In this document: in pieces, positions 2,616 through 62,884 of the stretch | Position numbering within the stretch: position 1 is the stretch's first letter | Layout of the letters: each line of letters begins with the position of its first letter | Assembly: GCA_900617105.1 (NCBI GenBank) | Contig: UYFQ01000001.1 | Span: 2,046,001-2,110,000 of the forward strand | Source of the DNA: Hydrurus foetidus | Lineage: Eukaryota | Reading direction: 5' to 3' | DNA: 64,000 nucleotides | Notes under the pieces: model-generated | Database searches by the model: none | Seen by the model: only the letters and a program-made list of their open reading frames with translations | What the model was told of the DNA's origin: nothing | Position numbers and translations under genes: made by a program

Positions 2616-2656
2616 GCTATTAATAAATGAGCTGTTCGCACCCTGATTTATTGGCC
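2616..2656 (+). repeat. 41-bp bipartite-dyad element, copy 1 (degenerate)
   Basis: GCTA-TTAATAAAT-GAGC-TGTTCGC-ACCC-TGATTTATT-GGCC, followed by phased A-tracts to ~2692. Lies between convergent genes. Confidence 0.75.
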
Positions 2657-2694
2657 AAAACACCAAAAAGGCAGTCGAAAATCGCCTTAAAAGG

Positions 2695-5076
2695 CTATTC
2701 AACCCTGGTCACAGCGGTGGGTTTGAATCCCAAGTCCGATGCTTTGCCTTTGCGCGCTCTGGCGGCTCTGGCGTTGTTCAGGCTGCGAATTTCGAGCGTT
2801 TCGTCGCGGGCTTTTCCGCCGCGACCCATGCCGTCAATACGCACACTTCGGGTGTAGGCCGCAGCACCGGCCAGCGCGTCTTTAGCGTCGAGGTCGATCA
2901 GCATCAAGCCGCGCCCACCGCCTGTCATTTGTTTAAGCTCTGAAATTTCGAAGGTCAGGATTCGACCGCCGGTCGAAGCGCAGGCCACGTGGGTGGCCGG
3001 GCTTAAAGGCGTTCCGCCTGACGTGCCAGATGCATGTGAGGGCTTGCAAACCGTCTCGCCTTCAGCGCAGCTAATAAACGCTTTGCCCGCTTTAGGCCGG
3101 GACGTCATTGCCTCCACACTGGCTAAAAACCCGTAGCCGCCGCTGCTGGATAAAAGCAGCGTGGCGCTCGCCGGGCCAGCGAAATAATGCAGGGGCTGCG
3201 TGCCGGATTCCAGCTCAATCAATGTCGTGACCGGCTGGCCGTCACCGCGCGCGCCAGGCAGCAGCGACACCGCTACTGAGTACACGCGCCCCACGCAGTT
3301 TCCAGATGAAGCTTTAGCGGCACTACCAAACACCAGCAACGTATCAACGGTGCGGCATTCAAAGCAGCCGTACAAGCCGTCGCCTTCTTTGAAAGCAAAG
3401 CTGGCTGCCTCATGGCCATGGCCTGTACGGGCCCGAATCCAGCCTTTGCTGCTGACCACGACGGTGACGGGCTCGTCAAGTACCTTGACTTCAAGCACGG
3501 CTTTTTTATCGGCCTGAATGAGTGTGCGGCGGGCATCACCAAACTGCTTGGCGTCCGCTTCAATTTCTTTAACCATCAAGCGCTTAAGCGCCGCTGGGCT
3601 ACCTAAAATTTCTTCCAACCGGCCCTGCTCTTCACGCAGGGTTTTGAGCTCTTGCTCAATCTTGATGGCTTCAAGCCGCGCGAGCTGGCGCAGGCGAATT
3701 TCCAGAATATCTTCAGCCTGCAAGTCGCTGAGCTTGAAGCGTTCAATCAACGCGGCCTTAGGCTCGTCTGACTGGCGAATGATCGCAATCACCTCGTCGA
3801 TGTTGAGCAGCACCAGTGCGCGCCCTTCGAGAATGTGAATGCGGGCCAACACCTTGTCGAGCCGATACTGCGAACGCCGGGCAATGGTGGTTTGCCTGAA
3901 TTCAATCCACTCCACCAGCATCTGCCTCAGTGATTTTTGTGCGGGGCGGCCGTCAAGGCCAATCATGGTGAGATTGATCGGCGACGAACTCTCCAGGCTG
4001 GTGTGGGCCAGCAGCGTGGTGATGAGTTCAGTTTGCCCAATGCGGCTGGTTTTGGGCTCAGCCACCAGGCGCACTGCCGCTTCTTTGCCCGACTCGTCGC
4101 GCACCACATCGAGCACGCCAAGCAGCGTTTGCTTGAGCTGAAGTTGCTCAGTGCTCAGCGCCTTTTTACCCGCTCGAATTTTGGGGTTGGTGAGCTCTTC
4201 GATTTCTTCCAGCACTTTTTGCGTGCTGACGCCGATTGGCAATTCAGTCACCACCAGCTGCCACTGGCCGCGAGCCATGTCTTCAATCTTCCAGCGGGCA
4301 CGCACTTTCAGCGAGCCGCGACCCGTGCCATAAGCCGCAGCAATCTCAGCGGCACTTGAAATAATTTGCGCACCGCCGGGGTAATCAGGCCCGGCGACGA
4401 TGGTGTACAGCTCTTCGTCTGCCAGCTTGGGCGATTTGATCAGCGCAATGCAGGCATCGGCAATTTCGCGCAGGTTGTGGCTCGGAATTTCAGTAGCCAA
4501 GCCGACCGCAATGCCGCTGGCGCCGTTGAGCAGAGAAAACGGCAGCCGCGCAGGCAGCTGGCGCGGCTCTTCAAATGAACCGTCATAGTTAGGTATGAAG
4601 TCGACCGTGCCTTCGTCCAGTTCGTCGAGCAGCAAACTCGTGATGCGGGCCAGCCGCGTTTCGGTGTAGCGCATGGCGGCTGCGCTGTCGCCGTCGCGCG
4701 AGCCAAAGTTGCCTTGCCCATCGACCAGCGGGTAGCGCTGGTTAAAGTCTTGCGCCATGCGCACCATCGCGTCGTAGGCGGCCGTGTCGCCGTGCGGGTG
4801 GTACTTGCCCAGCACATCGCCGACCACACGGGCGCTTTTAACTGGCTTGGCGCCGCTGTTGCCATTGGCGCCGCCAAAGCCCAAGCCCATGCGCGACATG
4901 CTGTACAAAATACGCCGCTGCACCGGTTTTTGGCCGTCACAGGCATCGGGTAGTGCGCGGCCCTTAACGACGCTGAGCGCATATTCAAGGTAAGCCCGTT
5001 GGGCGTAACTAGACAGGCTGTCGGAATTAGCAGATTCGGGCGCTGCGGGTGCAGCGTCAGGCGTAAAAAGATCCAT
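2695..5076 (-). CDS. parC: DNA topoisomerase IV subunit A
   Basis: [41 protein letters not shown] motifs; linked to parE. Confidence 0.97.
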
Positions 5077-5173
5077 GGATAGTTAGCGATTAAAAGTAAC
5101 GCGCGCCGCGCGAAAAAAAGTCAAAGAAATCACAGCTGCAAAGGCAGAGGAAAAGAAAAAAGCAAAGCCAGGG

Positions 5174-6037
5174 CTAGTCAAGCACGGCGGGTGCTGCAGC
5201 AACCGCGGTAGGCATGGTCACCAACGCCGGCACCATGTTGTTTCGCCCTTGCGTGCCGCCCATCATTTCCATTCGCACGCGGCCGCTTTTTCTTGCGTCC
5301 ACTACAGCGCTGGGCGGTTTTAAATGCGCGTACATCTGCATGACTGTTTTGACGTAATTTTTGGTCTCGGGGTAGTTCGGCACTTTGTTGCCTGCACGCT
5401 GCACAGCGCCTTCGCCGGCGTTGTAGGCCGCTACTGCCAGCTCCAGTTGGCCCGGAAACAGTTTGATCAAGTCCCGCAGGTAGGTTGATCCGGCGCGAAT
5501 ATTCGTTTTCGGGTCAGTGAGCTTTTGCGCCAGCGGCGTTTTTTTGTCGGCCTTAACGCCGTAGCGCTCTGCGGTTTGCGGCATCAGTTGCATCAAGCCG
5601 ACCGCGCCTTTGGGCGACACCGCGTGCGTGTCAAAACCGGACTCAGCAGCAATCAGCGCTTGCAGCAGTTCGTAGTCAATACCGTGTTGCACCGAGGCGT
5701 CTTTGATCAAATGCTTGACAGCTTTGTAGCCGGGCGACACATCAAAAAACGCGAGCAACTTGGTTTGCGAACGGCCACCGCCTGTGGCAGGCAGGTTGCC
5801 CCGCGCTGTGGGCACAGGCGCTGCGTCGGTGCCCACACCCGCCGCAAAACTTTCGCCACTTTTAAAAAACAGCTGGTAGCGCTCGTCGAGCTTTTCAGTT
5901 GAAAAATGCGCAACGCCCTGCCCGTCAACATAGCCCCAAACGTCGGCAAATGCGGGCGAGCATGCAAGCACAACAGCCAACATACATAGCCATTTAGCGA
6001 TGTATTTGAAGGCCTGACGCGCAACGGCCAACATCAA
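5174..6037 (-). CDS. Lytic transglycosylase (SLT domain) with signal peptide
   Basis: AESGF, SPKGAVGLMQLMP, AAYNAGEG, YPETKNYV motifs. Confidence 0.92.
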   Translation of the reverse strand: MMLAVARQAFKYIAKWLCMLAVVLACSPAFADVWGYVDGQGVAHFSTEKLDERYQLFFKSGESFAAGVGTDAAPVPTARGNLPATGGGRSQTKLLAFFDVSPGYKAVKHLIKDASVQHGIDYELLQALIAAESGFDTHAVSPKGAVGLMQLMPQTAERYGVKADKKTPLAQKLTDPKTNIRAGSTYLRDLIKLFPGQLELAVAAYNAGEGAVQRAGNKVPNYPETKNYVKTVMQMYAHLKPPSAVVDARKSGRVRMEMMGGTQGRNNMVPALVTMPTAVAAAPAVLD

Positions 6038-9517: not shown

Positions 9518-9556
9518 GCTTCTTTTGGTCAGATTTAAGCATTTTTTAGGCCTATA

Positions 9557-9597
9557 GCCTAACAAACACGGGCGCGAGCAGCTATGAAAATAATAGT
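9557..9597 (-). repeat. 41-bp element, copy 2 (overlaps SDR start codon)
   Basis: + strand GCCT-AACAAACAC-GGGC-GCGAGCA-GCTA-TGAAAATAA-TAGT, with phased T-tracts at 9511-9547. Confidence 0.9.
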
Positions 9598-10402
9598 AAT
9601 AGTAATTACAGGTGCGTCTGACGGCATTGGTGCAGAGATGGCGCGTCAGCTTGCCAAGCGCCACGGCGCTGGAGTTGCGCTGGTATTGGCGGCGCGCAAT
9701 GAGGCACGGCTGGCAGAAGTCGCTGGCCAATGCCAGGCTTTTGGCGCGCAAACCTTGGTGCTTCAAACCGATGTGTCGATCGATACCGCCTGCCGCGCGC
9801 TGATAGCGGCAACGGTGGCGAAATACGGTCAAATCGACGCGTTGATCAATAACGCCGGCATGTCTGCCCAGGCACTGTTTGAAGAAGTCAAAGCGGGCGA
9901 CTTGGCCTGGTACGAGCAACTGATGCGTATCAATTTATGGGGCAGCGTGTGGTGCACCCACGCCGCGCTGCCTTACCTCAAACAAAGCCGCGGCCGCATT
10001 GTGGCGGTGTCTAGCCTTGCCGGGCTGATTGGCGTGCCTGGGCGCACCGCCTACAGTGCCACCAAATTTGCCATGACTGGCTTTTTTGAAGCGCTGCGGG
10101 CCGAGCTAAAAACCGCTGGCGTCAGCGTGACCACCGCTTACCCCGGCGTGGTGGCCACGCAAATTCGCCACAACGGGTTCAATGCGGCGGGCAAAGCGGC
10201 AGGCGCCAGCGGCCTGAAAGAGGACAACGCCATGAGCATTGAAGAATGCGCCCAACTCATCTTGCAAGGCATGGACACACGCCAGCGCGAAGTCGTGATG
10301 ACCGCCAAAGGCAAGCTGGGCCGCTGGCTTAAATTGCTTGCCCCCGCGCGGGTTGAAGCGATGGCGTTGGCGGCGCTTAAAGACGAGGTCAAGCCGTCTT
10401 GA
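9584..10402 (+). CDS. SDR family oxidoreductase
   Basis: ITGASDGIG, NNAG and YSATK motifs. Confidence 0.93.
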   Translation: MKIIVIVITGASDGIGAEMARQLAKRHGAGVALVLAARNEARLAEVAGQCQAFGAQTLVLQTDVSIDTACRALIAATVAKYGQIDALINNAGMSAQALFEEVKAGDLAWYEQLMRINLWGSVWCTHAALPYLKQSRGRIVAVSSLAGLIGVPGRTAYSATKFAMTGFFEALRAELKTAGVSVTTAYPGVVATQIRHNGFNAAGKAAGASGLKEDNAMSIEECAQLILQGMDTRQREVVMTAKGKLGRWLKLLAPARVEAMALAALKDEVKPS

Positions 10403-11001
10403 AAGACCTCGGCTTGCACGGAGCAATGCCGCCATCAGAGTGGGTCATGCGCTGGTCGCACTTGGTTAAAGCGCAAGGCAGCGTGCTGGACGTGGCCTGT
10501 GGTTATGGTCGCCACGCAAGCTGGTTTTATGGCAAAAATCACACACTAGCCCTTGTAGATCAGGCGCAAGCAGCTATTGATTACATAGCGACAATTATTC
10601 CACTTGACGCTGCCAGTGCTCACACCGCCGTGGTGGCCGACATTGAAAATGGCCCCTGGCCGTTTGCGGGCCGTCAGTTCGATGCGGTAGTGGTCACCCA
10701 CTATTTATGGCGACCGTTAGTGCCAACGCTGCTGGCCAACCTGGCGCCGGGCGGCGTGTTGATTTACGAAACTTTTGCGCAGGGCAATGAGACGGTCGGC
10801 AAGCCGTCTCGGGCAGATTTTTTGCTGCGCACAGGCGAGTTGCTTGAGGTCTGCAAAGGTCTTCGCGTGGTGGCTTTTGAAGAAGGTTTCGCCATAGATG
10901 CAGGCGGGACAAACGCCAGATTCGTCCAGCGCATTGCCGCTGTGCGTGAGGCCTTGCAGCCGCTCGAACCCAACGCACCGGCTCGTTATCCACTGGCTTG
11001 A
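10399..11001 (+). CDS. Class I SAM-dependent methyltransferase
   Basis: VLDVACGYGRH motif I, LAPGGVLIYETF. Start uncertain. Confidence 0.85.
   Translation: MKDLGLHGAMPPSEWVMRWSHLVKAQGSVLDVACGYGRHASWFYGKNHTLALVDQAQAAIDYIATIIPLDAASAHTAVVADIENGPWPFAGRQFDAVVVTHYLWRPLVPTLLANLAPGGVLIYETFAQGNETVGKPSRADFLLRTGELLEVCKGLRVVAFEEGFAIDAGGTNARFVQRIAAVREALQPLEPNAPARYPLA
10549..10589 (-). repeat. 41-bp element, copy 3 (inside methyltransferase CDS)
   Basis: GCCC-TTGTAGATC-AGGC-GCAAGCA-GCTA-TTGATTACA-TAGC, read in frame as ALVDQAQAAIDYIA. Confidence 0.85.
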
Positions 11002-16931: not shown

Positions 16932-16972
16932 GCTACATTATTTATAGCTGCTCGCGCCCGTAAAATTTCGCT
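16932..16972 (+). repeat. 41-bp element, copy 4
   Basis: GCTA-CATTATTTA-TAGC-TGCTCGC-GCCC-GTAAAATTT-CGCT, plus phased tracts to ~17017. Confidence 0.88.
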
Positions 16973-17368
16973 TGCAGCTATTTTTTTACTCAAAGTTGGC
17001 TTATTTAGCCTCTTTTTAGGCCTAACAGCACAAAGCGTCGTGTGCCGTCAGGCCAAGCAGATCGACTCCACACGCTACAGCCACGGGCAGGTGCAGCCGT
17101 GCGGTTGATAATAAGTCGTTGTGCTTACCGAGTACCCTCATTTTTTAACCCGGCAGCCGATGCGCAGCTAAAAGACGCACCTTCGTGACAACATTTGCGT
17201 CGTAAAGCGTTTTTATGTCAAAACTGTCATTTTCGGTGAGCACATCAGTTTTCTAATCACGTTTGTGACGTGTGAGGGCGTTCTTCACACATTTTGCAAT
17301 CCAGACAACCCAAGCTACTCGAGCACGCAAGTTGCGCGAATAAGCCCCTCCTGAACCCAAGGAAAACC

Positions 17369-19696
17369 ATGAAACTCGTCGATTTAAAAAGAAAAAAGTC
17401 TCTCTCATTGTCTGTACTGAGCCTTCTGCTCGGCTCCGTTTACTTAACCTCTTGCGGCGGCGGCAGCGAGACCGCGGCTAGCAGCAGCGCCAACATGAAC
17501 ACAACAGCAGATGCTTCTTCGCCTGCATTTAACTTAAAGGGTTTTACGGAATGCGGCAAGCAAGACGACATACTGGACCTGAAGGTCAAAACGCACGTTG
17601 CTTTTGGCCTTGACAAGGCTGATAGGAAAGATGGGGCTGAGAGCAAGTTTGTTTACCTCTATGCTCAAACAGGCAAATTAAAGCTCTCAGCCGACGTATT
17701 TGGCAACGACCCCATCCCACCGCTGTACAAAAAAGGGTATTGCAAAGTAGTCACTGCTGACAACAACGATGCCGTCGTGCTCAGCGCAGCAATGGCCAAA
17801 ATCAAAGCGCACTTAGAGGGCACGTCAGTGATGACAGCAGAGCAACTGCAAGAGCAAGACGACCGCATCACGCAGACCACCTATACGCTGTCTGAAAATA
17901 AAGGCAATATTACCCAGGCGTTTGCTTTGATAAACGCCTACGAAACCAAGGAAAAAGGCGCATTTTTTATCAATGCCAAAACCAAAGAAGGCTTTCCAAA
18001 CTTTTCGGGGAAAGCAGACAACTTTGGACTTGACCGCGCCGTGTTGGCCATTCAGCAAAGCATTTTTGACTTCGCTTTCACACCTGCCGCGCTGGCAACT
18101 TATCGCGACACGCTGGCCGGGCTGAAATTCAACAGCTCCGATTGGTTCCCGGGCAAGGTGAAAGCCCCAGCTGTGGCCAGCACGGTTTACACCGCCGAAA
18201 TAAACGGTACGGTAGTTAAAGACGTAGGCATCCGCAGCGCTTTCTCTCAGCACTACGCACGTCGCCCCACCGGCTATTACCTGGCCGCTGGTGACATTGC
18301 CAAAATTACCGTGCCTGACTCTATCCCCAAAGATGGCACGTTCAAGATTCGTGTGGGTGCCAATGTGCACGACAAGTACATCAAGAGCACGATTGAGCGA
18401 CCGTTTCGGATCAGCAACCAATTTCCCATCGTGAGTAAAGTCACTGAGATTGCCAACCCTTATGGTGGCGGCATTTACATCGATGTGCCTTACTTGGCGA
18501 CAGCAGGTGCAAGCGTAAAAATTGAAATTCAAAACGTGGTGCCAGCACCGTTTTTCCAGAGCACCGCCTTGAAGAAAACAACACTGGACGATTGGAAAAC
18601 TACGCTGCGCAACCACCCCGCGCCTTGGGCCGACTTCATGAGCGACAAAGTCATGCTCACGGTTCCCACCAAGTGGATCTACGCGTACGACGATCCAGTG
18701 GCGCTCATGAAAGATTGGGACAACCGCATTGACACCATATCGGCCCTGACTGGCAAGCAAAAAGTCAGAAACAACCAGGTGCTTTACGCAATCGTCGACA
18801 CCAGCTTACTTGGCGACGGCTTTGGTATCGGCTACCCCACCGGTAACAACGATTACAAGCCCGGCAGAACGACCAACGGCAACGAGAAGCATTGGTTGTT
18901 AGTTCCGGGTAGCTCTCAACTCAAATTTGGAGCTTCAGAGTTTCACGAGCTTGGCCATGCCGACCTATTTAGCAATTTTGGTGGTGAAGGCGAAGCAAGC
19001 ATTAACCTGCTGTACATCGCAATCAAAAACAACCTGTACAAAGAAAACATCGACGAAGCCCTCGGCGAATCGATGGGCAGGCACAAGGCAATTGGGCGCG
19101 ACGTAGCAGCCGTTAACTGGATGGTGACGCCCAACTTCCGGGCTGGCAATGCGATGGACACCAGCAGTTCTGAAAAAAATGAGGTGCGTTATCAAGAGCG
19201 CGGCTACGCCAAGTATGTTGAGATTGCAGCACTTTTTGGATGGGACAAACTGGAGGCTTTTTGGGCTGAAGAAAACCGGGTGGCAATACCAGGCAAGGAT
19301 CCGTCCACCGAAACCGACAGCAGAATCTTGCGCATGTCGAAGGCAGCTGGCGTAGACCTTACCCCGCTGATTCACTTTTGGGGTGTACAGCCAAATAACC
19401 CGGTAGCGCTCAAAGCTGCAATTACCGCCGCCAACTTGCCGAGTTCTAACTTGATCTACGAGCGATTGGTGCTTTACAAAGGGCTAATCCCGCTGACCAA
19501 CGACGCCTTCAAAATACACGCAGGTGTATTTTTAGACAAACCCATCAAAGATATCAACGGCACAGGCAAGAGCGCTGATTACGGCGAAGGTTGGTACGCC
19601 GCCGCTATCCCTACCTACGGACCGGCGCAAGGAGACGCTGCACAAAAGGCGATGGACAATATCATCAAGACCTACTTCCCCGGCAGTAGACCTTAA
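17369..19696 (+). CDS. M60-like (peptidase M60/enhancin-type) zinc metallopeptidase, lipoprotein
   Basis: Lipobox LTSC, PTGYYLAAGD, NPYGGGIYI, APWADF, HELGH followed by GEGEASINL (gluzincin). Codon usage is AT-richer than the flanks. Confidence 0.85.
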   Translation: MKLVDLKRKKSLSLSVLSLLLGSVYLTSCGGGSETAASSSANMNTTADASSPAFNLKGFTECGKQDDILDLKVKTHVAFGLDKADRKDGAESKFVYLYAQTGKLKLSADVFGNDPIPPLYKKGYCKVVTADNNDAVVLSAAMAKIKAHLEGTSVMTAEQLQEQDDRITQTTYTLSENKGNITQAFALINAYETKEKGAFFINAKTKEGFPNFSGKADNFGLDRAVLAIQQSIFDFAFTPAALATYRDTLAGLKFNSSDWFPGKVKAPAVASTVYTAEINGTVVKDVGIRSAFSQHYARRPTGYYLAAGDIAKITVPDSIPKDGTFKIRVGANVHDKYIKSTIERPFRISNQFPIVSKVTEIANPYGGGIYIDVPYLATAGASVKIEIQNVVPAPFFQSTALKKTTLDDWKTTLRNHPAPWADFMSDKVMLTVPTKWIYAYDDPVALMKDWDNRIDTISALTGKQKVRNNQVLYAIVDTSLLGDGFGIGYPTGNNDYKPGRTTNGNEKHWLLVPGSSQLKFGASEFHELGHADLFSNFGGEGEASINLLYIAIKNNLYKENIDEALGESMGRHKAIGRDVAAVNWMVTPNFRAGNAMDTSSSEKNEVRYQERGYAKYVEIAALFGWDKLEAFWAEENRVAIPGKDPSTETDSRILRMSKAAGVDLTPLIHFWGVQPNNPVALKAAITAANLPSSNLIYERLVLYKGLIPLTNDAFKIHAGVFLDKPIKDINGTGKSADYGEGWYAAAIPTYGPAQGDAAQKAMDNIIKTYFPGSRP

Positions 19697-19718: not shown

Positions 19719-19759
19719 ACTATAAATTAGATAGCTGCTCGCGCCCGTATTAATTGGGC
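19719..19759 (+). repeat. 41-bp element, copy 5
   Basis: ACTA-TAAATTAGA-TAGC-TGCTCGC-GCCC-GTATTAATT-GGGC, with tracts at 19780/19790/19800/19810. Confidence 0.92.
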
Positions 19760-19847
19760 TACAGCTCGATTCGGCACCCAAAAAGTGCCATTTTGAGCGA
19801 TTTCAACCCAAATCGCCACCAATCCCCATTCATCAATCGCTAGCCAA

Positions 19848-20962: not shown

Positions 20963-22239
20963 TTAACGATTGATGGTTTGTTAATACGGTTGGCAATTTC
21001 TTTGACCAGCTGCCGCGCCAGTGTGAGCTTGCTGGCTCTCGGCATTTCAGTTGCGCCGTGGCTGTCGACCAGCAGCAGCGCATTGTGGTCTTGGCCAAAG
21101 GTGTCGGGGCCGATGTTGCCGACCAGCAGCGGCACGTTTTTACGCAGGCGCTTGGCTTGGGCGTTTTCATGCAGGTCGTGGCTTTCTGCGGCAAAACCTA
21201 CACAAAACAATTTACCGCTGGTGGCGGCGGCTGATTGCGCAACGGTGGCCAAGATGTCCTGGTTCTCAGCAAACGCCAACTGCGGTGGCGAGCCAGAGCC
21301 GTCTTTTTTAATTTTTCGGCTGGCAAATGCTGCGGGCCGCCAGTCGGCCACAGCCGCAGTCGCTATAAATACAGTAGCTGCTTGCGCCCGATTAATAACG
21401 GCTTCAAGCATATTTGATGCTGATTTAACGTCGAATCTTGCAACCCCACGCGGTGTGGGCAAGCTGACTGGCCCAGCGACCAAAGTCACATCAGCGCCCG
21501 CCTCACGCGCAGCGCGTGCAATGGCAAAACCCATCTTGCCGCTTGATAAATTGGTAATGCCGCGCACCGGGTCAATGGCCTCGTAGGTGGGCCCCGCAGT
21601 CACCAGCACGTGCTGCCCGGCCAACACTTTGGGGGTGAAAAAAGAAATGATGTCTGCTAAAAGCTCAGCAGGCTCCAGCATGCGGCCGTCACCCGTTTCG
21701 CCGCAAGCCTGAAAGCCATTGCCCACACCCAGCACCGTTGCCCCGTCGCTTTGCAGTTGCACCAAGTTGCGCTGGGTAGCCGGGTGAGCGTACATTTCGC
21801 GGTTCATGGCGGGGGCCACCAACAGCGGCACGGTGTCAATCGGCCTGGCCAGGCACATCAAACTCAGCAATTCATCAGCCCGGCCGTGCAGCAGCTTGGC
21901 CAGGAAGTCGGCGCTGCAGGGGGCAATCAAAATAGCATCGGCTTCGCGCGACAAATTGATGTGCGCCATGTTGTTGGCTATTTCGCCGGTGGCGCGGCTG
22001 TCCCACTGGCTGGTAAACACCTGGCGGCCAGACAGGGCTTGCATCGTCACGGGCGTGATGAACTGCTCGGCTGCCTCAGTCATTACCACTTGCACCGTCG
22101 CCCCGGCTTTAATCAGCGCCCGGCACAACTCGGCTGCCTTGTAGCAGGCAATCCCGCCTGAAAGCCCCAAAACGATGTGCTTGCCACCCAGTGCCAGCGG
22201 CTCTGCAACATCAATACCAAAATCAAGATCGTTGTTCAT
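20959..22239 (-). CDS. coaBC: Phosphopantothenoylcysteine decarboxylase/ligase
   Basis: [41 protein letters not shown] and GFAAE motifs. Confidence 0.96.
21362..21402 (+). repeat. 41-bp element, copy 6 (inside coaBC)
   Basis: GCTA-TAAATACAG-TAGC-TGCTTGC-GCCC-GATTAATAA-CGGC; the antisense frame encodes [14 protein letters not shown]. Confidence 0.9.
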
Positions 22240-28454: not shown

Positions 28455-29276
28455 ATGCGCCTGTTTACCGACCCGCCAGAAATACGCCATTGGGCGCTAC
28501 AGGCCTTGATTGAGCCTGTTTTAGAAGAAAAAGTAGCCAAAACCCAATTAATATGGGCGCGAGCAGCTACGATATTAATAGCTGAAAAGGCGGATCTGCA
28601 AGCACCAATGGGTCTGCCCGGCTGCCCTGCTCGCCCAGAGCTGTGCGCCCATCTCGATGTTCCCAAACGTTCCCCGTTTACCCCTGCCGGGCTGGCAGCT
28701 TTGTTGCACGCCGTGACGCACATTGAATTCAACGCAATCAATTTGGCCCTTGATGCTATCTGGCGCTTTGCCAACATGCCGCGTGAGTACTACCTGGACT
28801 GGAGCAAAGTGGCGGCCGAGGAAGCGCATCATTTCAGCCTGCTGCGGGCGCACCTGCAGAGCATGGGGCATGACTATGGCGACTTCCCGGCCCACACTGG
28901 TTTGTGGGACATGACCCATAAAACCACTGGCGACGTACTGGCCCGCATGGCGCTGGTGCCGCGCACGCTGGAGGCGCGGGGCCTTGATGCAACGCCGCCC
29001 ATGCAGGCCAAGCTGCGCAAAGTGGGCACCCCCCATGCTTTGCGGGCAGTTGAAATTTTGGACGTTATTTTGCGCGACGAAATTACCCATGTGGCGATTG
29101 GCAACCACTGGTACCGTTACGTGTGCCAGCAGCGCGGGCTAGACCCCGTGGCCCACTATGCGGTGTTGGCCGCCCAGTACAGTGCACCTCGCATCAAGGG
29201 GCCGCTCAACCTCGATGCGCGCCGCCAGGCCGGCTTTGAAGCAGACGAGCTGGATTTGCTAAGTCACAGCGCCTAA
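28455..29276 (+). CDS. Ferritin-like DUF455 protein
   Basis: HAVTHIEFNAINLA, EEAHHF, LEARGLD and DEITHV motifs. Confidence 0.9.
   Translation: MRLFTDPPEIRHWALQALIEPVLEEKVAKTQLIWARAATILIAEKADLQAPMGLPGCPARPELCAHLDVPKRSPFTPAGLAALLHAVTHIEFNAINLALDAIWRFANMPREYYLDWSKVAAEEAHHFSLLRAHLQSMGHDYGDFPAHTGLWDMTHKTTGDVLARMALVPRTLEARGLDATPPMQAKLRKVGTPHALRAVEILDVILRDEITHVAIGNHWYRYVCQQRGLDPVAHYAVLAAQYSAPRIKGPLNLDARRQAGFEADELDLLSHSA
28542..28582 (-). repeat. 41-bp element, copy 7 (inside DUF455 CDS)
   Basis: ACCC-AATTAATAT-GGGC-GCGAGCA-GCTA-CGATATTAA-TAGC, encoding TQLIWARAATILIA. Confidence 0.9.
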
Positions 29277-33679: not shown

Positions 33680-33720
33680 ACTATTAATTTTATAGCTGCT
33701 CGCGCCTGTACTTATTGGGC
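33680..33720 (+). repeat. 41-bp element, copy 8
   Basis: ACTA-TTAATTTTA-TAGC-TGCTCGC-GCCT-GTACTTATT-GGGC, with A-tracts at 33730/33741/33751. Confidence 0.92.
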
Positions 33721-33778
33721 TGCAGCACTAAAACCGCCCGAAAAATCGCCAAAAACGTTCTGTCAAACCAAAAATACG

Positions 33779-36575: not shown

Positions 36576-36616
36576 GCTACTAAATAAATAGCTGCTTGCG
36601 CCCGATTTAATTGGGC
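36576..36616 (+). repeat. 41-bp element, copy 9
   Basis: GCTA-CTAAATAAA-TAGC-TGCTTGC-GCCC-GATTTAATT-GGGC; fills most of a 59-bp convergent gap. Confidence 0.92.
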
Positions 36617-36631
36617 TACACGGCTATTTAT

Positions 36632-37300
36632 TTACTTTTTCGGCAGCACGTGCAGCAAAAACGCCTGCACATCAAGCACTTCTTCAGGGCACACCGAGTG
36701 GGCCATGCGGTACTCGTGCCAATCGACCGAGTAGCCCATGCTGGTCAGAGCATTGCGTGACTCCACAGCCCTAGGCAATGCGACCACCTCGTCTTGCGTG
36801 CCATGCGCCAAAAATATCGGCGTAGCCAGGCTGGCAGCGGTGCGTTCAGCGGCGGCAAGGTCTGCCAGCGGCAAATAGCCCGACATGCCGATCACGCCAG
36901 CCAACGCCTCAGCGTGGCGCAGCCCCACCATCAATGCCATGGCACAACCCTGCGAGAACCCAGCCACCACGATGCTGCTGGCCGGTATGCCGCGTGCTTT
37001 TTCACTGGCAATCAATGCCTCGACTTGCAGCCTGGAGGCACGCAAGCCCGCTTCGTCTTCCCGCCGTACCAAGTCGGCCGTCATGATATCGTACCAGGCG
37101 GGCATTTCATAGCCGCCATTGATCGTGACCGGAATCACCGGTGCGTTCGGGAATAAAAACCGCACCGGGCCAATACTGTCGAGCTCAAGTTGCTCCGCTA
37201 TTGGCAAAAAGTCTCGCCCATCGGCGCCCAGGCCGTGCATGATGATGACGGTCGCTACCGGGTTGGGGCCGGTTTCGGCTTCAATTACTTGTAAGGTCAT
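36632..37300 (-). CDS. Carboxylesterase/phospholipase (alpha/beta hydrolase)
   Basis: MHGLGADG, MPAWYD, GFSQG, HGTQD and HSVC motifs. Confidence 0.92.
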   Translation of the reverse strand: MTLQVIEAETGPNPVATVIIMHGLGADGRDFLPIAEQLELDSIGPVRFLFPNAPVIPVTINGGYEMPAWYDIMTADLVRREDEAGLRASRLQVEALIASEKARGIPASSIVVAGFSQGCAMALMVGLRHAEALAGVIGMSGYLPLADLAAAERTAASLATPIFLAHGTQDEVVALPRAVESRNALTSMGYSVDWHEYRMAHSVCPEEVLDVQAFLLHVLPKK

Positions 37301-37901: not shown

Positions 37902-37983
37902 GGCCGCCCACCCCGGCGCAGCCTCGGGGTTTGCCCGGTCAAAAATCAGGCTGGGCGTGCAATATTACAAAAATGTGTTTCAT

Positions 37984-38024
37984 ACGCCCTATTTTTGGGC
38001 GCAAGCAGCTATTAAGTTGGTAGC
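37984..38024 (-). repeat. 41-bp element, copy 10
   Basis: ACGC-CCTATTTTT-GGGC-GCAAGCA-GCTA-TTAAGTTGG-TAGC. Confidence 0.85.
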
Positions 38025-38108: not shown

Positions 38109-38432
38109 ATGAGTACCAAAGAAAGTGCGGCCACTGGCCAACTGCTCGAACTGCTGGAATCGCGTTACGCCATGCGCGTGTTGTGGGCCTTAAAAGACGG
38201 CCACCCACAAACATTTCGCATTTTGCAAGACAGCGTGGGCTCCATCACCCCGAACACGCTGAACACGCGGATTAAAGAAATGCGCGCTGCTGGCTTGCTC
38301 ACGCATGGCACGTCGGGCTACACGGTGACCACCCTGGGTGCAGACTTGCTCAAGCGCCTGAGCGACCTGCAGGCCTTTGCCACCAAATGGATCAGCAGCC
38401 AGTCGAAGGCAGCAGCCGTTAAAAAGAAATAA
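38109..38432 (+). CDS. Winged helix-turn-helix regulator (HxlR family)
   Basis: LLESRYAMRVLWAL, TFRILQ, ITPNTLNTRIKEM, YTVTTLG. Confidence 0.85.
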   Translation: MSTKESAATGQLLELLESRYAMRVLWALKDGHPQTFRILQDSVGSITPNTLNTRIKEMRAAGLLTHGTSGYTVTTLGADLLKRLSDLQAFATKWISSQSKAAAVKKK

Positions 38433-38486: not shown

Positions 38487-38526
38487 ATGCCTGACGCTTG
38501 GTTTTGGCACCCTAAAATCCACATTC

Positions 38527-38567
38527 GCCCAATAAATACGGGCGCTAGCAGCTATTAAATTTATAGT
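38527..38567 (-). repeat. 41-bp element, copy 11
   Basis: GCCC-AATAAATAC-GGGC-GCTAGCA-GCTA-TTAAATTTA-TAGT. Confidence 0.92.
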
Positions 38568-42588: not shown

Positions 42589-42629
42589 GCTATTTAATTT
42601 ATAGCTGCTCGCACACGTATTTGTTGGCC
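42589..42629 (+). repeat. 41-bp element, copy 12
   Basis: GCTA-TTTAATTTA-TAGC-TGCTCGC-ACAC-GTATTTGTT-GGCC. Confidence 0.87.
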
Positions 42630-42655
42630 TAAGGCTTTACTTATGCCTTATTTAT

Positions 42656-45963: not shown

Positions 45964-46004
45964 GCTATTTATTCAATAGCTGCTTGCGCCCGTATTTATT
46001 GGGC
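45964..46004 (+). repeat. 41-bp element, copy 13 (closest to consensus)
   Basis: GCTA-TTTATTCAA-TAGC-TGCTTGC-GCCC-GTATTTATT-GGGC, with A-tracts at ~46014/46025/46035. Confidence 0.93.
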
Positions 46005-46039
46005 TACAGCCCTAAAATACCTTTAAAACAGCCTAAAAA

Positions 46040-47002: not shown

Positions 47003-47048
47003 GTATTTAGCTTGAAAAGCGCCTTTTTAAGGCATAAATGTGGCCCTA

Positions 47049-47089
47049 GCCCAATAAATACGGGCGCGAGCAGCTACTAAAATAATAGT
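47049..47089 (-). repeat. 41-bp element, copy 14
   Basis: GCCC-AATAAATAC-GGGC-GCGAGCA-GCTA-CTAAAATAA-TAGT. Confidence 0.93.
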
Positions 47090-56661: not shown

Positions 56662-56678
56662 TTCAGCTCCTGTCAATG

Positions 56679-58606: not shown

Positions 58607-58630
58607 TGATGGTGTTGTTAAATTGTCTTG

Positions 58631-58731: not shown

Positions 58732-58733
58732 TT

Positions 58734-59726
58734 TTGAAAGTCAGCAGTCCCGCCACCTATCTTCAAACCCGCTTTCACGCCTGGTTTGAAAACCGCCTGC
58801 CGCTCAGCGACCACATCACACTTACCCAGCGCACGGTGTACATCTTGCCTACCCGGCCAGGCTGGATGCTGGGGCTAACACTGCTGGTGCTGTTGGTGGC
58901 GTCGATCAACTACCAGCTTAATTTAGGCTACCTGTTGACTTTTTTACTGGCCGGCAGCGCCGTGGTCGGCATGCATGTATGCCACGGCACGCTGCGTGGG
59001 TTGTCATTAAATTTAATAGCGCCTGGCGCCCAATTTGTCGGGGCTTCGGCCGCTTTTGATGTCAAGCTGATCAACGCTGCAAAAAGCGTGCGCTACGGCA
59101 TTGGCATGGCGGTGATGACGCCACAGCCGCATTGGTCTTGGGCAGATGTGCCCGCAGGCGGCAGCGCCAACGTGCAGGTGGCCTTCACGCCCGAGCGGCG
59201 CGGGCTGCACCGCATTCCCACGCTCACGGCTGAGACGCGGTTTCCGCTAGGCACCTTCAGGGTGTGGACCGTATGGCGCCCCGCCGCCAGTGTGCTGGTG
59301 TACCCCGCTCCCGAATCAATGCCGCCGCCTTTGCCCGCTGGCGAGCCCAAAGCAGGCGGTGCCGCCAACGCCAGCAAAGCGCAAAACACGGGCGAGTTCG
59401 ACGGCGTTCGCGGTTACCGCCGAGGCGACCCAGTCAAGCTGGTGGTTTGGAAAAAAGCCGCGAAAGCTGACGAGAATTCACTCAGCGAAAGCGCTGGCCT
59501 GGTGGTGCGCGACACCCAGCAAGCGCAGCGCCACGAGCTGTGGCTTGACTTTGCCCAAGCAGGCAGCGGTGGGCTTGAAGCCAAGTTGTCGCGCCTGTGT
59601 GCCTGGGTGCTGCAAAGCGACAAACTCGCGCTTGATTACGGTTTGCGCCTGCCCGCGCGCGAGATCAAACCCGCCAGTGGCGAAGCACATAAACGCCAAT
59701 GCCTGGAGGCGCTGGCTTTATGTTGA
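58734..59726 (+). CDS. DUF58 domain protein
   Basis: VYILPT, FPLG, LVYPAPE, GVRGYRRGD..VWK; follows moxR. Confidence 0.9.
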   Translation: MKVSSPATYLQTRFHAWFENRLPLSDHITLTQRTVYILPTRPGWMLGLTLLVLLVASINYQLNLGYLLTFLLAGSAVVGMHVCHGTLRGLSLNLIAPGAQFVGASAAFDVKLINAAKSVRYGIGMAVMTPQPHWSWADVPAGGSANVQVAFTPERRGLHRIPTLTAETRFPLGTFRVWTVWRPAASVLVYPAPESMPPPLPAGEPKAGGAANASKAQNTGEFDGVRGYRRGDPVKLVVWKKAAKADENSLSESAGLVVRDTQQAQRHELWLDFAQAGSGGLEAKLSRLCAWVLQSDKLALDYGLRLPAREIKPASGEAHKRQCLEALALC

Positions 59727-61750
59727 ACGCTGTGATCAATCGACTGAACCACTTGCCGCGCGACAGCCGCGACACGTTGTTTTTGCTCAGCGTGATTGCC
59801 TGGGTGCTGTTGCCGCAAACGCCGCACTTGCCGTGGTGGTGCAGCGCTTTGGCTTTTGCCGTGCTGCTGTGGCGCGGCCGTTTGGCGTTAACGGCCAAGG
59901 CGCTGCCCAGCGCGTGGTGGCGCCTGGGCTTGCTGGCCCTTGCCATGGCGGCCACGCTATTTACTTTTAAAACCCTGCTGGGCCGCGATGCAGGCGTGAC
60001 CATGCTGGCCGTGTTGCTCAGCCTAAAAACACTTGAACTGCGTGCCAAGCGTGATGCGTTTGTGGTGTTTTTTCTCGGCTTTTTTTGCATGCTGGCCAAC
60101 TTTTTTTACACGCAGTCGTTGGTCACTGCGGCCAGCATGTTGATTGGCTTATTGGGTCTGCTCACGGTGCTGGTCAATGCGCACATGCCGGTCGGCAAAC
60201 CGCCCCTGCGGGTTGCGGCCAAAACCGCTGGCTGGATGGCACTGCTGGGCGCGCCCATCATGGTGGTGCTGTTTTTGCTTTTCCCGCGCTTGGCGCCGCT
60301 GTGGGGCACACCGGGCGAGGCTATTGCCGGCCGCAGCGGCTTGAGCAGCACCATGCAGGTGGGCACCATCGCCAGCCTGGCATTAGACGACAGCGTGGCG
60401 CTGCGCATCAAGTTTGAAGGCGCACCGCCGCAGCAAAGCGACATGTACTTTCGTGGGCCGGTGCTGTCTACCTTTGATGGCCGCGAGTGGCGCGCCGCCA
60501 ACCCGGATGTGTTTTCACGCTTCAAGGTTACTGCCAGTTTGGTGGTGAGTGGCGAGCCGGTTCGCTATGAAGTCACGCAAGAGCCCAGCAGCAAGCCGTG
60601 GCTGGTGATGATGGACGCAGCGCCCAAGCCGCCCGCTGTTGAAGGCTACGAAAGCTTCATGTTGAGCGATTTGCAGTGGATCACCAACCGCCCCATCAAC
60701 AGCCTGGTGCGCTATAAAGTCGAGAGCTACCCGCGCTTTACCCACGGCCCCACGCAGCCGGTGATTGGCTTGAAAGAATTTGTTGATTTACCGCCAGGCT
60801 TTAACCCCCGCACACTCGCGCTGGCCCAAGACATTCGGCGCGACCCGCGCTATGCACAAGCTGCCAGCGGCCCGCTGGTCGATGTGGTGATGAGCAAATT
60901 GCGAGAAGGCAGCTACACCTACACGCTAGAGCCGGGCGTGTACGGCCAAAACACCGCAGACGAATTCTGGTTCGACAAAAAAGAAGGCTTTTGTGAACAC
61001 ATTGCGTCGAGCTTTGTGATTTTGATGCGCGCCCTCGGCGTGCCAGCGCGCATCGTGACTGGCTACCAGGGCGGCGAGTTAAACGGTGTTGACGGTTTTT
61101 GGACAGTGCGCCAAAGCGATGCACACGCGTGGGCCGAGGTGTGGTTTGAAGGCCGAGGCTGGGTGCGTGTTGACCCCACATCGGCGGTGTCGCCTAGCCG
61201 CACCGGCGCGTTTCAGCGCTTAACGCCGCCGCAAAATGCAGTCGGCCAGGCGCTGCGCAATTTCAACCCGGCGTTTTCCCTTCAGCTGCGCGCTGCGTGG
61301 GAAGCCGTCAACAACAGCTGGAACCAGTGGGTGTTGAACTACACGCAAGGCAAGCAACTCAACCTTTTGAAAAACATCGGTTTCACGTCACCCAGCTGGG
61401 AAGACTTGAGCTACGTGCTGATTGGCATTGTGGTGGCTGTCAGCATAGCGGGCGCGGCTTGGGGCTTGTGGGAACGCACCCAGCACGACCCGTGGCTGCG
61501 CTTGCTGGGGCGCGCGCGCAAACGTTTGGCCAAAGCCGGTATTGAAAGCACCGCCGCCAGCACGCCGCGCCAGCTCGCGCTGTTGCTGCTTGGCAAATTG
61601 CCTGACTCAAAAGCAGACCCCGCGCACAGCGGGCTAGTCGCCTGGCTGATGCAACTGGAAGCGCAACGCTACGCCAGCGCAACCCACGCCAGCACGGCGG
61701 CCCTGCAGCAACTCAAGCAGCAGTTCAAAACGCTGGCCTGGCCTAAGTAA
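59720..61750 (+). CDS. DUF3488 and transglutaminase-like domain protein (TgpA family)
   Basis: N-terminal TM segments, GFCEH, GVPARIVTGYQGG, AHAWAEVW and WVRVDPT motifs. Confidence 0.92.
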   Translation: MLNAVINRLNHLPRDSRDTLFLLSVIAWVLLPQTPHLPWWCSALAFAVLLWRGRLALTAKALPSAWWRLGLLALAMAATLFTFKTLLGRDAGVTMLAVLLSLKTLELRAKRDAFVVFFLGFFCMLANFFYTQSLVTAASMLIGLLGLLTVLVNAHMPVGKPPLRVAAKTAGWMALLGAPIMVVLFLLFPRLAPLWGTPGEAIAGRSGLSSTMQVGTIASLALDDSVALRIKFEGAPPQQSDMYFRGPVLSTFDGREWRAANPDVFSRFKVTASLVVSGEPVRYEVTQEPSSKPWLVMMDAAPKPPAVEGYESFMLSDLQWITNRPINSLVRYKVESYPRFTHGPTQPVIGLKEFVDLPPGFNPRTLALAQDIRRDPRYAQAASGPLVDVVMSKLREGSYTYTLEPGVYGQNTADEFWFDKKEGFCEHIASSFVILMRALGVPARIVTGYQGGELNGVDGFWTVRQSDAHAWAEVWFEGRGWVRVDPTSAVSPSRTGAFQRLTPPQNAVGQALRNFNPAFSLQLRAAWEAVNNSWNQWVLNYTQGKQLNLLKNIGFTSPSWEDLSYVLIGIVVAVSIAGAAWGLWERTQHDPWLRLLGRARKRLAKAGIESTAASTPRQLALLLLGKLPDSKADPAHSGLVAWLMQLEAQRYASATHASTAALQQLKQQFKTLAWPK

Positions 61751-61759
61751 AATGAGGGC

Positions 61760-62884
61760 ATGCCTGCAAAACTGCCCTTATTCAAGTTTTTATCTACTAT
61801 TATTTTAGTAGCTGCTTGCGCCCGTATCTCTTGGGCTGCAGACCTAAATGATACTAAAAAAGCGGCTTTAAACGGCGCTCCAGCTGCAGGGCAGCCCCCC
61901 GCCAGTCATTCCAGTCATTCCAATTATTCCAACCGCCCAGAAGTCATGCAGTTTGCCGACGACCTGGCCGCCAGGCGCGACCTGGACCCCACCTGGGTTC
62001 GCCAGGCCATCGGCCAAGCCAGGTATAGCGCTACGGTGGCGCGCCTGATGCAACCCGCCCCCAAACCTTTCGTTAAAAACTGGCGCGTGTACCGCAGTCG
62101 CTTTATTGACCCGGTGCGCATAGCGGCTGGCGTGAAGTTTTGGCAAACCAACGCGGCTACGCTGCAGCGCGCTGAAAAAGAATACGGCGTGCCAATTGAC
62201 ATCATCGTCGGCATCATTGGTGTCGAAACCATTTACGGCCGCGACACCGGCAGCTTTCGCGTGATGGACGCCATCACCACGCTGGCGTTCGACTTTCCCA
62301 GCAGCCACCCGCGCGCCAAAGAACGCAGCGAGTTTTTCAAAGGCGAGGTAGAGCAATTTTTAAGCATGCAAAGCCGCCGGGGCGCCGACCCGTTTGAGCC
62401 GCGCGGCAGCTTTGCAGGCGCCATGGGTATGCCGCAGTTCATGCCGTCCAGCTGGGTGAAATACGCGGTCGATTTTGATGGCGACGGCAACATCGATTTG
62501 TGGAACAGCCCCGCAGATGTCATTGGCTCGGTGGCCAATTACTTCAAGGCCTTTAACTGGCAACCCGGCATGCCCACGCATTACCCGGTGAGCTTTGACA
62601 AAACCAGGCTAGACATGGACGCGCTCATGGCGCCCGACATACTGCCCACCTTCAGCGTGGCCAGCTTTACCGCCAAAGGCGCAGTGCTAGACGCGGCGGG
62701 CGCAGCGCACACCGGCCCGCTGGCGCTGATTGAACTGCTCAACGGCCCAGATGCGCCGCAGTACGTGGCGGGCACCGACAATTTTTACGCCATTACCCGC
62801 TACAACTGGAGCAGTTACTACGCCATGTCGGTGATTGAGCTGGGGCGGGAAGTGGCGTTGAAAATGGCCGAGCGGGGGCGGTAG
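61760..62884 (+). CDS. mltB: Lytic murein transglycosylase B
   Basis: GVETIYG, GSFAGAMGMPQFMPSS, DFDGDG and ITRYN motifs. Confidence 0.93.
   Translation: MPAKLPLFKFLSTIILVAACARISWAADLNDTKKAALNGAPAAGQPPASHSSHSNYSNRPEVMQFADDLAARRDLDPTWVRQAIGQARYSATVARLMQPAPKPFVKNWRVYRSRFIDPVRIAAGVKFWQTNAATLQRAEKEYGVPIDIIVGIIGVETIYGRDTGSFRVMDAITTLAFDFPSSHPRAKERSEFFKGEVEQFLSMQSRRGADPFEPRGSFAGAMGMPQFMPSSWVKYAVDFDGDGNIDLWNSPADVIGSVANYFKAFNWQPGMPTHYPVSFDKTRLDMDALMAPDILPTFSVASFTAKGAVLDAAGAAHTGPLALIELLNGPDAPQYVAGTDNFYAITRYNWSSYYAMSVIELGREVALKMAERGR
61796..61836 (+). repeat. 41-bp element, copy 15 (inside the mltB signal-peptide region)
   Basis: ACTA-TTATTTTAG-TAGC-TGCTTGC-GCCC-GTATCTCTT-GGGC, encoding TIILVAACARISWA, with phased tracts to ~61872. 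Confidence 0.9.

Follow-up and report, generated by a model that had tools for sequence, protein, structure and literature searches.

A dispersed 63-bp composite DNA element of the Comamonadaceae and its candidate HxlR/DUF24 reader

Structure of the repeated element

The window, i.e. the whole 64-kb stretch of DNA analysed here, has a Polaromonas-like sequence and was compared with genome G001 (55% shared 31-mers) and with congeners. It carries many copies of a dispersed repeat, together with a gene encoding a protein of the HxlR/DUF24 family (Table 1). A previous sequence-only reading described this repeat as a 41-bp element present in 15 copies. The copies are confirmed: 14 of these 15 match the proposed consensus with at most 3 mismatches, for a chance expectation of 0.01 and a maximum of 1 across 100 shuffles, and the fifteenth, at 2616, is degenerate (PWM score of 26 bits vs 47-66 for the other listed copies). 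Both orientations are represented, as claimed (9 on the + strand and 6 on the - strand). The length had to be corrected to ~63 bp. Of the strong copies, three are located within genes and another overlaps a start codon.

Table 1. Copies of the element and associated gene in the 64-kb window
Feature	Position	Strand	Basis
Degenerate element, convergent spacer ahead of parC end	2616..2678	+	Consensus and PWM scan
Element across start codon of SDR gene	9535..9597	-	Consensus match and gene calls
Element within methyltransferase gene, antisense	10527..10589	-	Consensus match and gene annotation
Element directly 3' of FKBP/SlyD-like gene	16932..16994	+	Consensus match
Element 3' of M60 peptidase gene; left neighbour varies among relatives	19719..19781	+	
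Element within coaBC, antisense; without indel vs orthologues	21362..21424	+	
Element within DUF455 gene, antisense; arm matches dialect of each genome	28520..28582	-	
Element in convergent spacer, AEC transporter/gshA	33680..33742	+	
Element in convergent spacer	36576..36638	+	Consensus match
Element in HxlR gene promoter (dyad 38008-38024); putative autoregulatory operator	37962..38024	-	
HxlR/DUF24-family winged-helix gene, 107 aa, no Cys, basic tail; candidate palindrome binder	38109..38432	+	
Element between HxlR gene and grpE	38505..38567	-	
Element directly 3' of dnaJ; same position in many congeners	42589..42651	+	
Element 3' of fghA, convergent spacer	45964..46026	+	
Element directly 3' of acyl-CoA dehydrogenase gene	47027..47089	-	
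Weak in-ORF copy, absent from the earlier list	59004..59066	+	PWM scan
Weak in-gene copy (TgpA-like gene), absent from the earlier list	60711..60773	+	PWM scan
Element in convergent spacer	61796..61858	+	Consensus match

The element is made of a conserved 17-bp palindrome, RCTAY-N7-RTAGC, and of an arm of ~45 bp written in a genome-specific dialect. The palindrome corresponds to the first of the two dyads initially proposed (dyad A), exact as RCTA-N9-TAGY in 14 of the 15 window copies; the LysR-type protein suggested by its T-N11-A core is not retained. The second (dyad B, GCCC-N9-GGGC) does not hold as a conserved palindrome. It is perfect in just 6 of the 15 copies and represents a dialect specific to the window; in other genomes this module is differently centred or devoid of dyad, so that the constant distance of 24 bp claimed between the dyad centres is not general. 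Additional A/T tracts are found at element offsets 50-53 and 61-63, and the A/T steps of the arm are phased ~22 bp apart. The arm accompanies 75 of 79 exact dyads, always on one side only, and a single strong arm out of 114 lacks the dyad. The left boundary of the element is sharp. Its information content amounts to ~34 bits for the arm and about 56 bits for the whole.

Distribution across genomes and along the chromosome

A scan of related genomes, as proposed with the first description, found many copies in 61 of 201 Comamonadaceae genomes (motif-rich, up to ~760 core matches per strand), with an amplification that is patchy among genomes. Outside the family, 245 genomes of the same order contain at most 11 core matches per strand. 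In the complete genome G118, 119 sites were detected in the 800 kb sampled of 4.5 Mb. They are evenly spread (12-17 per 100 kb in each of the nine sampled blocks, gap CV 0.80) and show no strand bias; the site list of another genome, G008, spans the chromosome. No Ter restriction or exclusion was seen in these nine blocks, which a narrow exclusion zone could escape, and no replichore-polarised orientation, unlike KOPS or Chi, was found in G118 or in single-genome site lists. Apparent runs of + strand sites are an artefact of multi-genome listings, the single-genome lists being mixed.

Intergenic copies hug the 3' ends of genes, just after the stop codons, and are enriched in convergent spacers: in G118, 38 of 87 convergent spacers contain a site vs 6 of 113 divergent ones, and the tandem spacers show no polarity (20 vs 16). 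Yet 37 of the 119 G118 sites fall in predicted ORFs (21 sense, 16 antisense). The lowest-GC fifth of tiles holds 10 sites vs 21-33, and five Comamonadaceae plasmids contain 3 sites in 1.34 Mb, a count that leaves aside the motif load of their hosts. Low-copy genomes retain sites near parA, dinB, infC and others. The phage copies surveyed (79 loci) have no fixed context: the genes that hold them bear no relation to one another (terminase, portal, primase, DarB-like, regulators).

Origin of the copies located in genes

As judged from orthologous sequences, the copies in coaBC, the methyltransferase gene and the DUF455 gene are shown to have arisen by substitution and to have been retuned toward the local dialect. 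These substitutions alter both codons and amino acids. No indel is present at the element in any coaBC locus shown with both flanks, nor beneath it in the DUF455 and methyltransferase orthologues. The DUF455 hexamer agrees with the dialect of its own genome at 4.57 of 6 positions vs 3.21 after permutation (p=1e-4, 20 loci). At the coaBC site, Ile is coded by ATA in 11 of 12 cases vs 17 of 250 in the rest of the gene, and in 0 of 4 cases in motif-poor genomes. In the search for empty sites, one allele shorter by 54 bp was seen that still bears a degenerate dyad.

Two other mechanisms were discarded. The antisense bias of the in-gene copies in the window dialect, inflated by orthologue sampling, could have indicated a polar roadblock; it vanishes in the G118 dialect and therefore reflects codon compatibility. 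Template copying of the elements is contradicted by the lack of haplotype blocks and of excess divergence vs G001 in intergenic copies (8/372 vs 173/7126). During read placement, other copies were seen to pile on the elements.

A REP/MITE-like non-autonomous mobile element that captured the operator, most copies being old insertions retuned later, is an unlikely source of the repeat. Such an origin would account for the sharp left boundary, the patchy amplification and the location at gene 3' ends, as for REPs, and the insertion comparison covers the three genes above. In these three genes it is nevertheless largely refuted by the orthologous sequences, where no empty site was found, in line with the initial opinion that the repeat is not a simple MITE. 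Moreover, near-identical copies are absent (nearest neighbour 46/66 vs 44 for independent columns), as are tandem arrays and terminal inverted repeats, and left-edge duplications barely exceed chance (6 vs 3.7 of 442). A link with RAYT was also rejected: the single RAYT-like gene is flanked by its own, different repeat and occurs in 186 of 201 genomes, with or without the motif.

The resemblance to the REP/BIME elements of RAYT systems (PMC3733652) lies in a patchy, genome-specific distribution, for the intergenic copies at 3' ends with convergent enrichment, and in an internal RTAG. The present element differs by its in-gene copies produced by substitution and by the absence of arrays, linked RAYT and stem-loop covariation. 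No Comamonadaceae genus, among those looked for, appears in the main text of that paper. The dismissal of a classic REP hairpin in the sequence-only reading is borne out, since Y4/R12 pairs show no excess and RNAalifold yields -0.77 kcal/mol without covariation. The Rfam search that it recommended gave no match, and a structured RNA was rejected on these grounds. The Burkholderiales-1 RNA motif, which is also multi-copy and belongs to this order too, has a different sequence in the excerpts of PMC2864571. The lack of covariation and the substitution origin of the in-gene copies lend support to the composite double-stranded protein site envisaged from the start.

An HxlR/DUF24 protein as candidate reader

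The same early proposal called for one or two dimeric binders. Comparative evidence now designates a candidate, which belongs to the HxlR/DUF24 winged-helix family and not to the LysR type. The product of the gene at 38109-38432 (ATG at 38109) matches PF01638 with 26.5 bits (cut-off 20.8), and its predicted structure model is a wHTH. PDB matches, YodB and HxlR among them, are weak (E values of at least 0.02). The aligned orthologues contain no Cys.

An exact dyad is found within 250 bp upstream of the orthologue at 32 of 37 loci (36 genomes) vs 85 of 2656 background windows, and at 36 of 37 loci if one mismatch is accepted. Among 11 further orthologue loci (G007 and ten low-copy genomes), the promoter dyad is exact in 6 and missing in 4. 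In the five genomes possessing a distant paralogue only, the 29.7 Mb contain 6 core sites, every one of them 39-128 bp upstream of this paralogue (5/5 genomes). An upstream dyad also precedes all 10 paralogues and 4 of the 5 plasmid homologues of alphaproteobacterial, betaproteobacterial or Bacteroidota origin; one canonical HxlR gene has none.

Phylogenetic profiling for a co-occurring gene, suggested in the first description, detected the HxlR gene in 60 of 61 motif-rich genomes and its absence from 87 of 90 motif-free ones, these genomes being kin and not independent, so that p-values are overstated. Within the genus of the window, 17 of 21 gene-less genomes have at most one copy vs 14 of 99 gene-bearing ones. 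Presence of the gene alone does not suffice: of the 86 genomes that carry it, 26 have fewer than 20 sites, although the recognition helix of their protein is the same. Sites without a gene match are found in G020 (96% complete) and in four fragmented Polaromonas genomes.

These comparisons argue strongly for binding of the HxlR/DUF24 protein to the palindrome and for repression of its own promoter by this protein, both of which we regard as very probable. The dyad overlaps a -35-like position, as judged by eye, in this presumed promoter, which the sigma-70 scan does not list. Such an autorepression would match the protein level to the number of sites, and the HxlR linkage would explain the dyad despite its LysR-type core. 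The element is thus likely a composite site for one dimeric HxlR/DUF24 candidate, with an origin that appears traceable to the operator of a single gene.

According to excerpts of PMC3351151, the DUF24 protein HypR of B. subtilis binds an AT-centred 16-bp inverted repeat, also at its own promoter. The family of the binder and an inverted repeat, AT-centred and some 16-17 bp long, in the promoter of the binder's own gene are common to both systems; as with HxlR/DUF24 operators, the paralogues regulate a divergent CMD/AhpD-like gene. The differences lie in the orthologue, which has neither Cys nor conserved neighbouring target gene (no conserved partner was found beside it, its neighbours varying among genomes), and in the hundreds of sites, many in genes, with a 45-bp arm. 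A redox-sensing Cys and a small local regulon are therefore not what was found. A very large ordinary regulon, in which HxlR would repress hundreds of promoters or serve as a transcription roadblock, seems very improbable. It agrees with a family of transcription factors, with the dyad position in the HxlR promoter and with the sites kept by low-copy genomes, but neither the depletion of divergent spacers, the tandem spacers without polarity nor the two orientations of in-gene copies would be expected from it, and the ~34-bit arm is left unexplained. Most of the sites are probably not regulatory operators.

Possible function and comparison with other systems

On balance, we favor the co-option of a dimeric HxlR/DUF24 protein, from repressor of one gene to chromosome-wide factor, with the ~63-bp composite sites as its landing pads. 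The dimer would originally have acted on the 17-bp palindrome of one gene; hundreds of chromosomal sites would then have become its landing pads, with autorepression adjusting its level to their number. More tentatively, a second partner, specific to the lineage, may wrap or read the ~45-bp arm, in a complex that would organise or relax chromosomal DNA; no such partner was found. Upon loss of the partner or of the use, sites would decay at synonymous positions, the gene diverging or disappearing later. SlmA is a repressor fold co-opted for dispersed chromosomal sites and, like Noc-NBS and MatP-matS, the SlmA-SBS system relies on dispersed palindromes and a dedicated dimer. The present element has ~10x more sites, a one-sided dialect arm, another protein family and no Ter restriction or exclusion seen in G118.

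A close rival is a self-DNA tag under molecular drive. The operator would have turned into a ~56-bit, dialect-coded mark, read inside the cell by HxlR and a species-specific partner and biasing DNA transfer or recombination: fragments in the local dialect would be favored for export, protection or recombination. Like uptake sequences, sites would then build up whatever their effect on fitness. We hold this to be rather unlikely. Dialects of DNA uptake sequences have reportedly been treated in one study (PMC3630211). The DUF455 copies that follow the genome dialect through amino-acid changes, the rare codon ATA fixed at the coaBC site and the scarcity of sites in low-GC tiles and on plasmids all favor a tag. 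In addition, an element borders 5 of the 9 tracts that diverge from G001 (p 0.018 and 0.005, post hoc), and one 2-kb foreign insert is joined exactly at a dyad edge; no element lies at the largest divergent tract of the L258 comparison. USS/DUS, as portrayed in part of PMC2817400, likewise number in the hundreds, roughly one in three of them in ORFs; they too reshape codons and residues, differ in dialect between lineages, have phased A/T tracts and are scarce in foreign DNA. Their cores are of 9-12 bp, against 63 bp and about 56 bits here, and the present core is a 17-bp palindrome whose presumed reader is a cytoplasmic-type wHTH, not a surface pilin. Since HxlR is predicted to be cytoplasmic and to bind double strands, it could not be a surface uptake receptor. 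The motif-rich G053 lacks a comEC match above cut-off, and the comEC profile is uninformative, this gene being near-universal (200/201 genomes). Verminephrobacter eiseniae and Acidovorax temperans transform sequence-selectively, with no uptake sequence named in the excerpts of PMC4212676.

The main text of PMC3318438 does not mention palindromic repeats in V. eiseniae. The sequence-only reading knew of no named family, and our literature search, whose scope excluded subscription journals, theses, RegPrecise and the PMC3733652 supplements, likewise turned up neither the motif nor this HxlR clade.

If the tag reading is true, the element would be the missing species-specific self-DNA signature of the Comamonadaceae, and would have rewritten proteomes throughout this bacterial family and in its phages. 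A further caution is that some codon and residue choices in element-bearing genomes reflect constraint at the DNA level. To our knowledge, motifs overriding protein coding genome-wide are limited to few lineages (USS, DUS, HIP1, Chi, KOPS); the search for their readers lasted years or is still under way. The present element is family-wide, larger than these motifs, and has a named candidate reader. Its origin would be a local HxlR/CMD operator, conserved across phyla, whose amplification took place in a single family; each stage (amplified, relic, lost) still has living representatives. These features make the transition from repressor to chromosome factor directly testable, as well as the basis of sequence-selective transformation in Verminephrobacter and Acidovorax. 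A thesis is said to mention abundant palindromic repeats in V. eiseniae. The species-specific dialects are more easily explained by biased inheritance than by a conserved topoisomerase.

Anatomy of the element

The sequence-only reading had described a 41-bp double dyad in 15 copies. Fourteen of these match that consensus at no more than three mismatches (0.01 expected) and the fifteenth, at 2616, is degenerate. A position weight matrix built from 225 unique element copies recovered all 15, as well as two weak copies within ORFs; its reversed and complemented controls stayed below 14 bits, and two of 20 codon-block shuffles gave one hit each. The unit is nevertheless longer than proposed, at about 63 bp, and its left edge is sharp. 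The dyad RCTAY-N7-RTAGC, AT-rich at its centre, occupies offsets 0-16 and is followed by a linker and then a module B (22-40); further A/T tracts lie distally, at 50-53 and 61-63. The frequency of AA/TT/AT steps has maxima around offsets 8, 51 and 62 and drops to background beyond the unit. The dyad is identical across all genomes seen, while linker and module B form genome-specific dialects. Since module B is palindromic in some dialects and non-palindromic in others, the second dyad, perfect in 6 of the 15 window copies, is a local feature and not a general one.

In G118, a complete congener genome of which 800 kb out of 4.5 Mb were analysed, small-sample estimates give about 22 bits of information for the dyad and about 34 for the arm, the one-sided remainder including module B. 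The arm is present at 75 of 79 exact dyads, on a single side only, and among 114 strong arms just one has no dyad.

Coordinates of the features (window positions unless a contig is named)
Feature	Coordinates	Observation
HxlR-family gene	38109-38432 (+)	HxlR/DUF24 winged helix
coaBC copy	21362	within gene
Methyltransferase copy	10527-10589	within gene
DUF455 copy	28520-28582	within gene
Insert locus	L259:5098-7052 vs window 28512-28582	2-kb foreign insert and foreign DUF455 5' end; truncated host DUF455 start left; G001:C291 arranged likewise
SDR start	9584-9610	in-frame 6-bp duplication at element's left edge; not in G001
M60-like peptidase gene	17294-19696	between two same-direction elements, the second at 19719, left of which relatives differ in gene content (L175, L261, L599), suggesting a variable slot
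Tandem repeat	2530-2590	short, AT/GC-alternating, unit about 15 bp, at end of ORF 1468-2544
ORF	1468-2544	G001 allele only 75% identical
G007 HxlR orthologue	G007:C1:1687344-1687647	in two frames

Distribution across genomes

The element is real and family-wide. The closest named relatives of one window protein are Polaromonas records, and the family surveyed is on this basis taken to be the Comamonadaceae in the wide sense. When the initial 26 bases of the element are searched for with one mismatch allowed, G001, the nearest of the genomes compared, gives 409 matches (control, 0). Core-dyad counts per strand, palindromes being scored on both, are bimodal in the 201 family genomes: 90 have none, 50 have 1-19 and 61 have at least 20, these motif-rich genomes ranging from 29 to 755. 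In other families of the same order, 245 genomes were counted and no value lies above 11; one of these genomes is unpublished and has no bearing on any conclusion.

Strand use and spacing, which the earlier reading had proposed to examine, were followed in G118: both strands are used, each of nine blocks holds 12-17 sites per 100 kb and the gap CV is 0.80. Gene calls made for this analysis place 37 of the 119 sites within ORFs (21 sense, 16 antisense). Among spacers, sites occupy 38 of the 87 between convergent genes, 36 of the 282 between tandem genes and 6 of the 113 between divergent genes. The lowest-GC fifth of the tiles holds 10 sites, against 21-33 in the other fifths. A regulon, in which the sites would act as regulatory operators, is argued against by this depletion in divergent spacers and by the indifference of the sites to orientation, replichore and coding status.

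Five Comamonadaceae plasmids, taken irrespective of their hosts' motif content, carry 3 sites in 1.34 Mb. The element was found in 79 viral loci, often within unrelated phage genes; in viral contigs L340, L371 and L412, the last matching an Rz-like spanin family, it lies in the reading frame and encodes a stretch at the N-terminus that resembles a signal peptide. Low-copy genomes retain relic dyads near parA, dinB and infC and in tRNA-associated hairpins. At L455, L457, L460, L461 and L423 several dyads are part of terminator-like hairpin stems directly after tRNA genes, the tRNA identity being read by eye.

Tests of RNA structure, insertion and mobility

For each of REP, MITE, structured RNA, KOPS/Chi and matS, there are defining tests that the element fails. 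Rfam gave no match. The stems had been judged too weak for a terminator or a classic REP hairpin. The 15 window copies fold at -0.77 kcal/mol without covariation; neither the 225 pooled copies nor the 119 of G118 show an excess of complementary pairs at the would-be paired positions.

Insertion was tested at the coaBC, methyltransferase and DUF455 copies. The coaBC site has equal length in the orthologues of 18 congeners among the matches listed, motif present or absent; the two other sites behave alike, with small indels confined to the left of the dyad. The absence of insertion at these three sites agrees with the earlier view that this is no simple MITE. In 14 genomes that carry 10 or more copies, the Ile codon of the coaBC site is ATA in 11/12 cases (17/250 elsewhere in the gene) and the Ala codon GCT in 13/14 (80/779 elsewhere), and four motif-poor genomes have neither. 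The site peptide has Thr or Ser in Polaromonas and a conserved Asp in other families, which makes it likely that motif-free congeners lost the signature rather than never having it. The three genomes that have 0-1 copies give negative site scores, but some sites of the motif-rich G216 and G219 also score low.

The B hexamer of the DUF455 copy agrees better with other copies of its own locus (4.57/6) than with those of other genomes (3.21/6; p=1e-4 over 20 loci, among which relatives are not independent), and this dialect tracking alters the encoded residue. G118 copies are no more similar to one another than independent columns predict. No arrays were found in five high-copy genomes, which hold 3 close pairs. 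A RAYT link was rejected: the sole RAYT-like gene is flanked by another repeat and is found in 186 of 201 family genomes. This mostly single-copy Y1/HUH gene of about 232 aa, with its own short inverted repeat (L537-L540, from G076, G159, G048 and G118), looks domesticated across the family.

An HxlR-family protein as candidate binder

The lead came from a motif-poor genome in which two dyads 31 bp apart adjoin an HxlR gene; the window's HxlR-family gene is likewise flanked by two element copies. In phylogenetic profiling, also proposed by the sequence-only reading, the HxlR orthologue co-occurs with the motif. Of the 201 family genomes 86 have it, among them 60 of the 61 rich in the motif, 21 of the 27 that hold 3-19 sites and 3 of the 90 without sites. 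The one motif-rich genome lacking it, G020 (96% complete), gave no HxlR match, alignment-based search included. The orthologue of the complete, motif-rich G007 is split by either a real frameshift or an assembly error. At most one copy of the strict pattern, which misses some dialects, is found in 17 of 21 congeners without the gene versus 14 of 99 with it; the four gene-less exceptions are 79-94% complete. At two of 30 loci (L433, L434) the orthologue has a ComFB-domain gene as its divergent neighbour.

Since related genomes share both traits, promoter position is better evidence than this profile. At 32 of 37 loci the 250 bp upstream of the orthologue contain an exact dyad, versus 85 of 2656 background windows (the loci are the 30 best hits in the family together with loci from congeners, excluding those with <200 bp upstream and counting G001 twice). 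Inspection by eye places the end of the dyad some 17 nt ahead of a TATA(G/T)T box; the predictions of a sigma-70 scan did not include this promoter. At 11 further loci (G007 and ten low-copy genomes) the dyad is exact in 6, has one mismatch in 1 and is absent from 4. As a test of prediction, genomes having only a distant paralogue and 1-2 dyads were searched: the dyads stood beside the paralogue in 5/5, the 6 sites in 29.7 Mb are all upstream of the paralogue match, at distances of 39-128 bp. Each of the 10 paralogues examined has exact dyads upstream, in most cases as a pair that faces a CMD/AhpD-like gene. Exact dyads also stand upstream of 4 of 5 plasmid homologues examined out of 10 hits (Ralstonia, Nitratireductor, Phyllobacterium, Arenibacter), the Streptomyces one having none. 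The one canonical HxlR examined had no upstream dyad.

The orthologues (102-116 aa, 73% conserved by column) lack Cys, mostly end in a basic tail and are modelled as a winged helix whose recognition helix is unchanged across dialects and in low-copy genomes. In B. subtilis, the footprint of HypR covers a similar AT-centred inverted repeat, one that is present at HypR's own promoter too (PMC3351151). Taken from sequence, the HxlR-family protein is strongly indicated as the candidate cognate binder of the dyad.

Possible origin and function

The element probably started as an old, widespread local HxlR/CMD operator, which in the Comamonadaceae was likely taken over by a regulator copy that stands alone and is autoregulated. 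The sites would then have multiplied chromosome-wide with a one-sided arm. As neither dialects nor low-copy genomes differ in the recognition helix, this arm is likely read by a second factor, whose loss would let the sites decay. The favoured role is that of a landing pad for chromosome organisation or topology management, because of the even spacing, the phased A/T steps, the small, basic and sensor-less protein and the enrichment where convergent transcription ends.

A close rival is the biased inheritance of DNA tagged by the element, which would account naturally for the dialects and the overriding of encoded residues. Sequence-selective transformation is described for two family members (PMC4212676). 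Five of nine divergent tracts relative to G001, read by eye, abut a site (p 0.018 in a shift test and 0.005 with gene junctions as the reference), but this adjacency is absent in the L258 comparison. In a single observation, a 2-kb foreign insert joins at the outer edge of the dyad inside DUF455. The presence of comEC, on the other hand, does not discriminate, and a cytoplasmic double-strand binder cannot serve as an uptake receptor. The motif-rich, 100% complete G053 has no comEC match above cut-off.

In build, the element resembles repressor-derived chromosome sites such as SlmA-SBS. Our literature search, outside subscription journals, theses, RegPrecise and some supplements, turned up no description of it. 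Size, symmetry and probable reader set the element apart from uptake sequences, yet its mode of evolution is similar to that of USS/DUS (PMC2817400).
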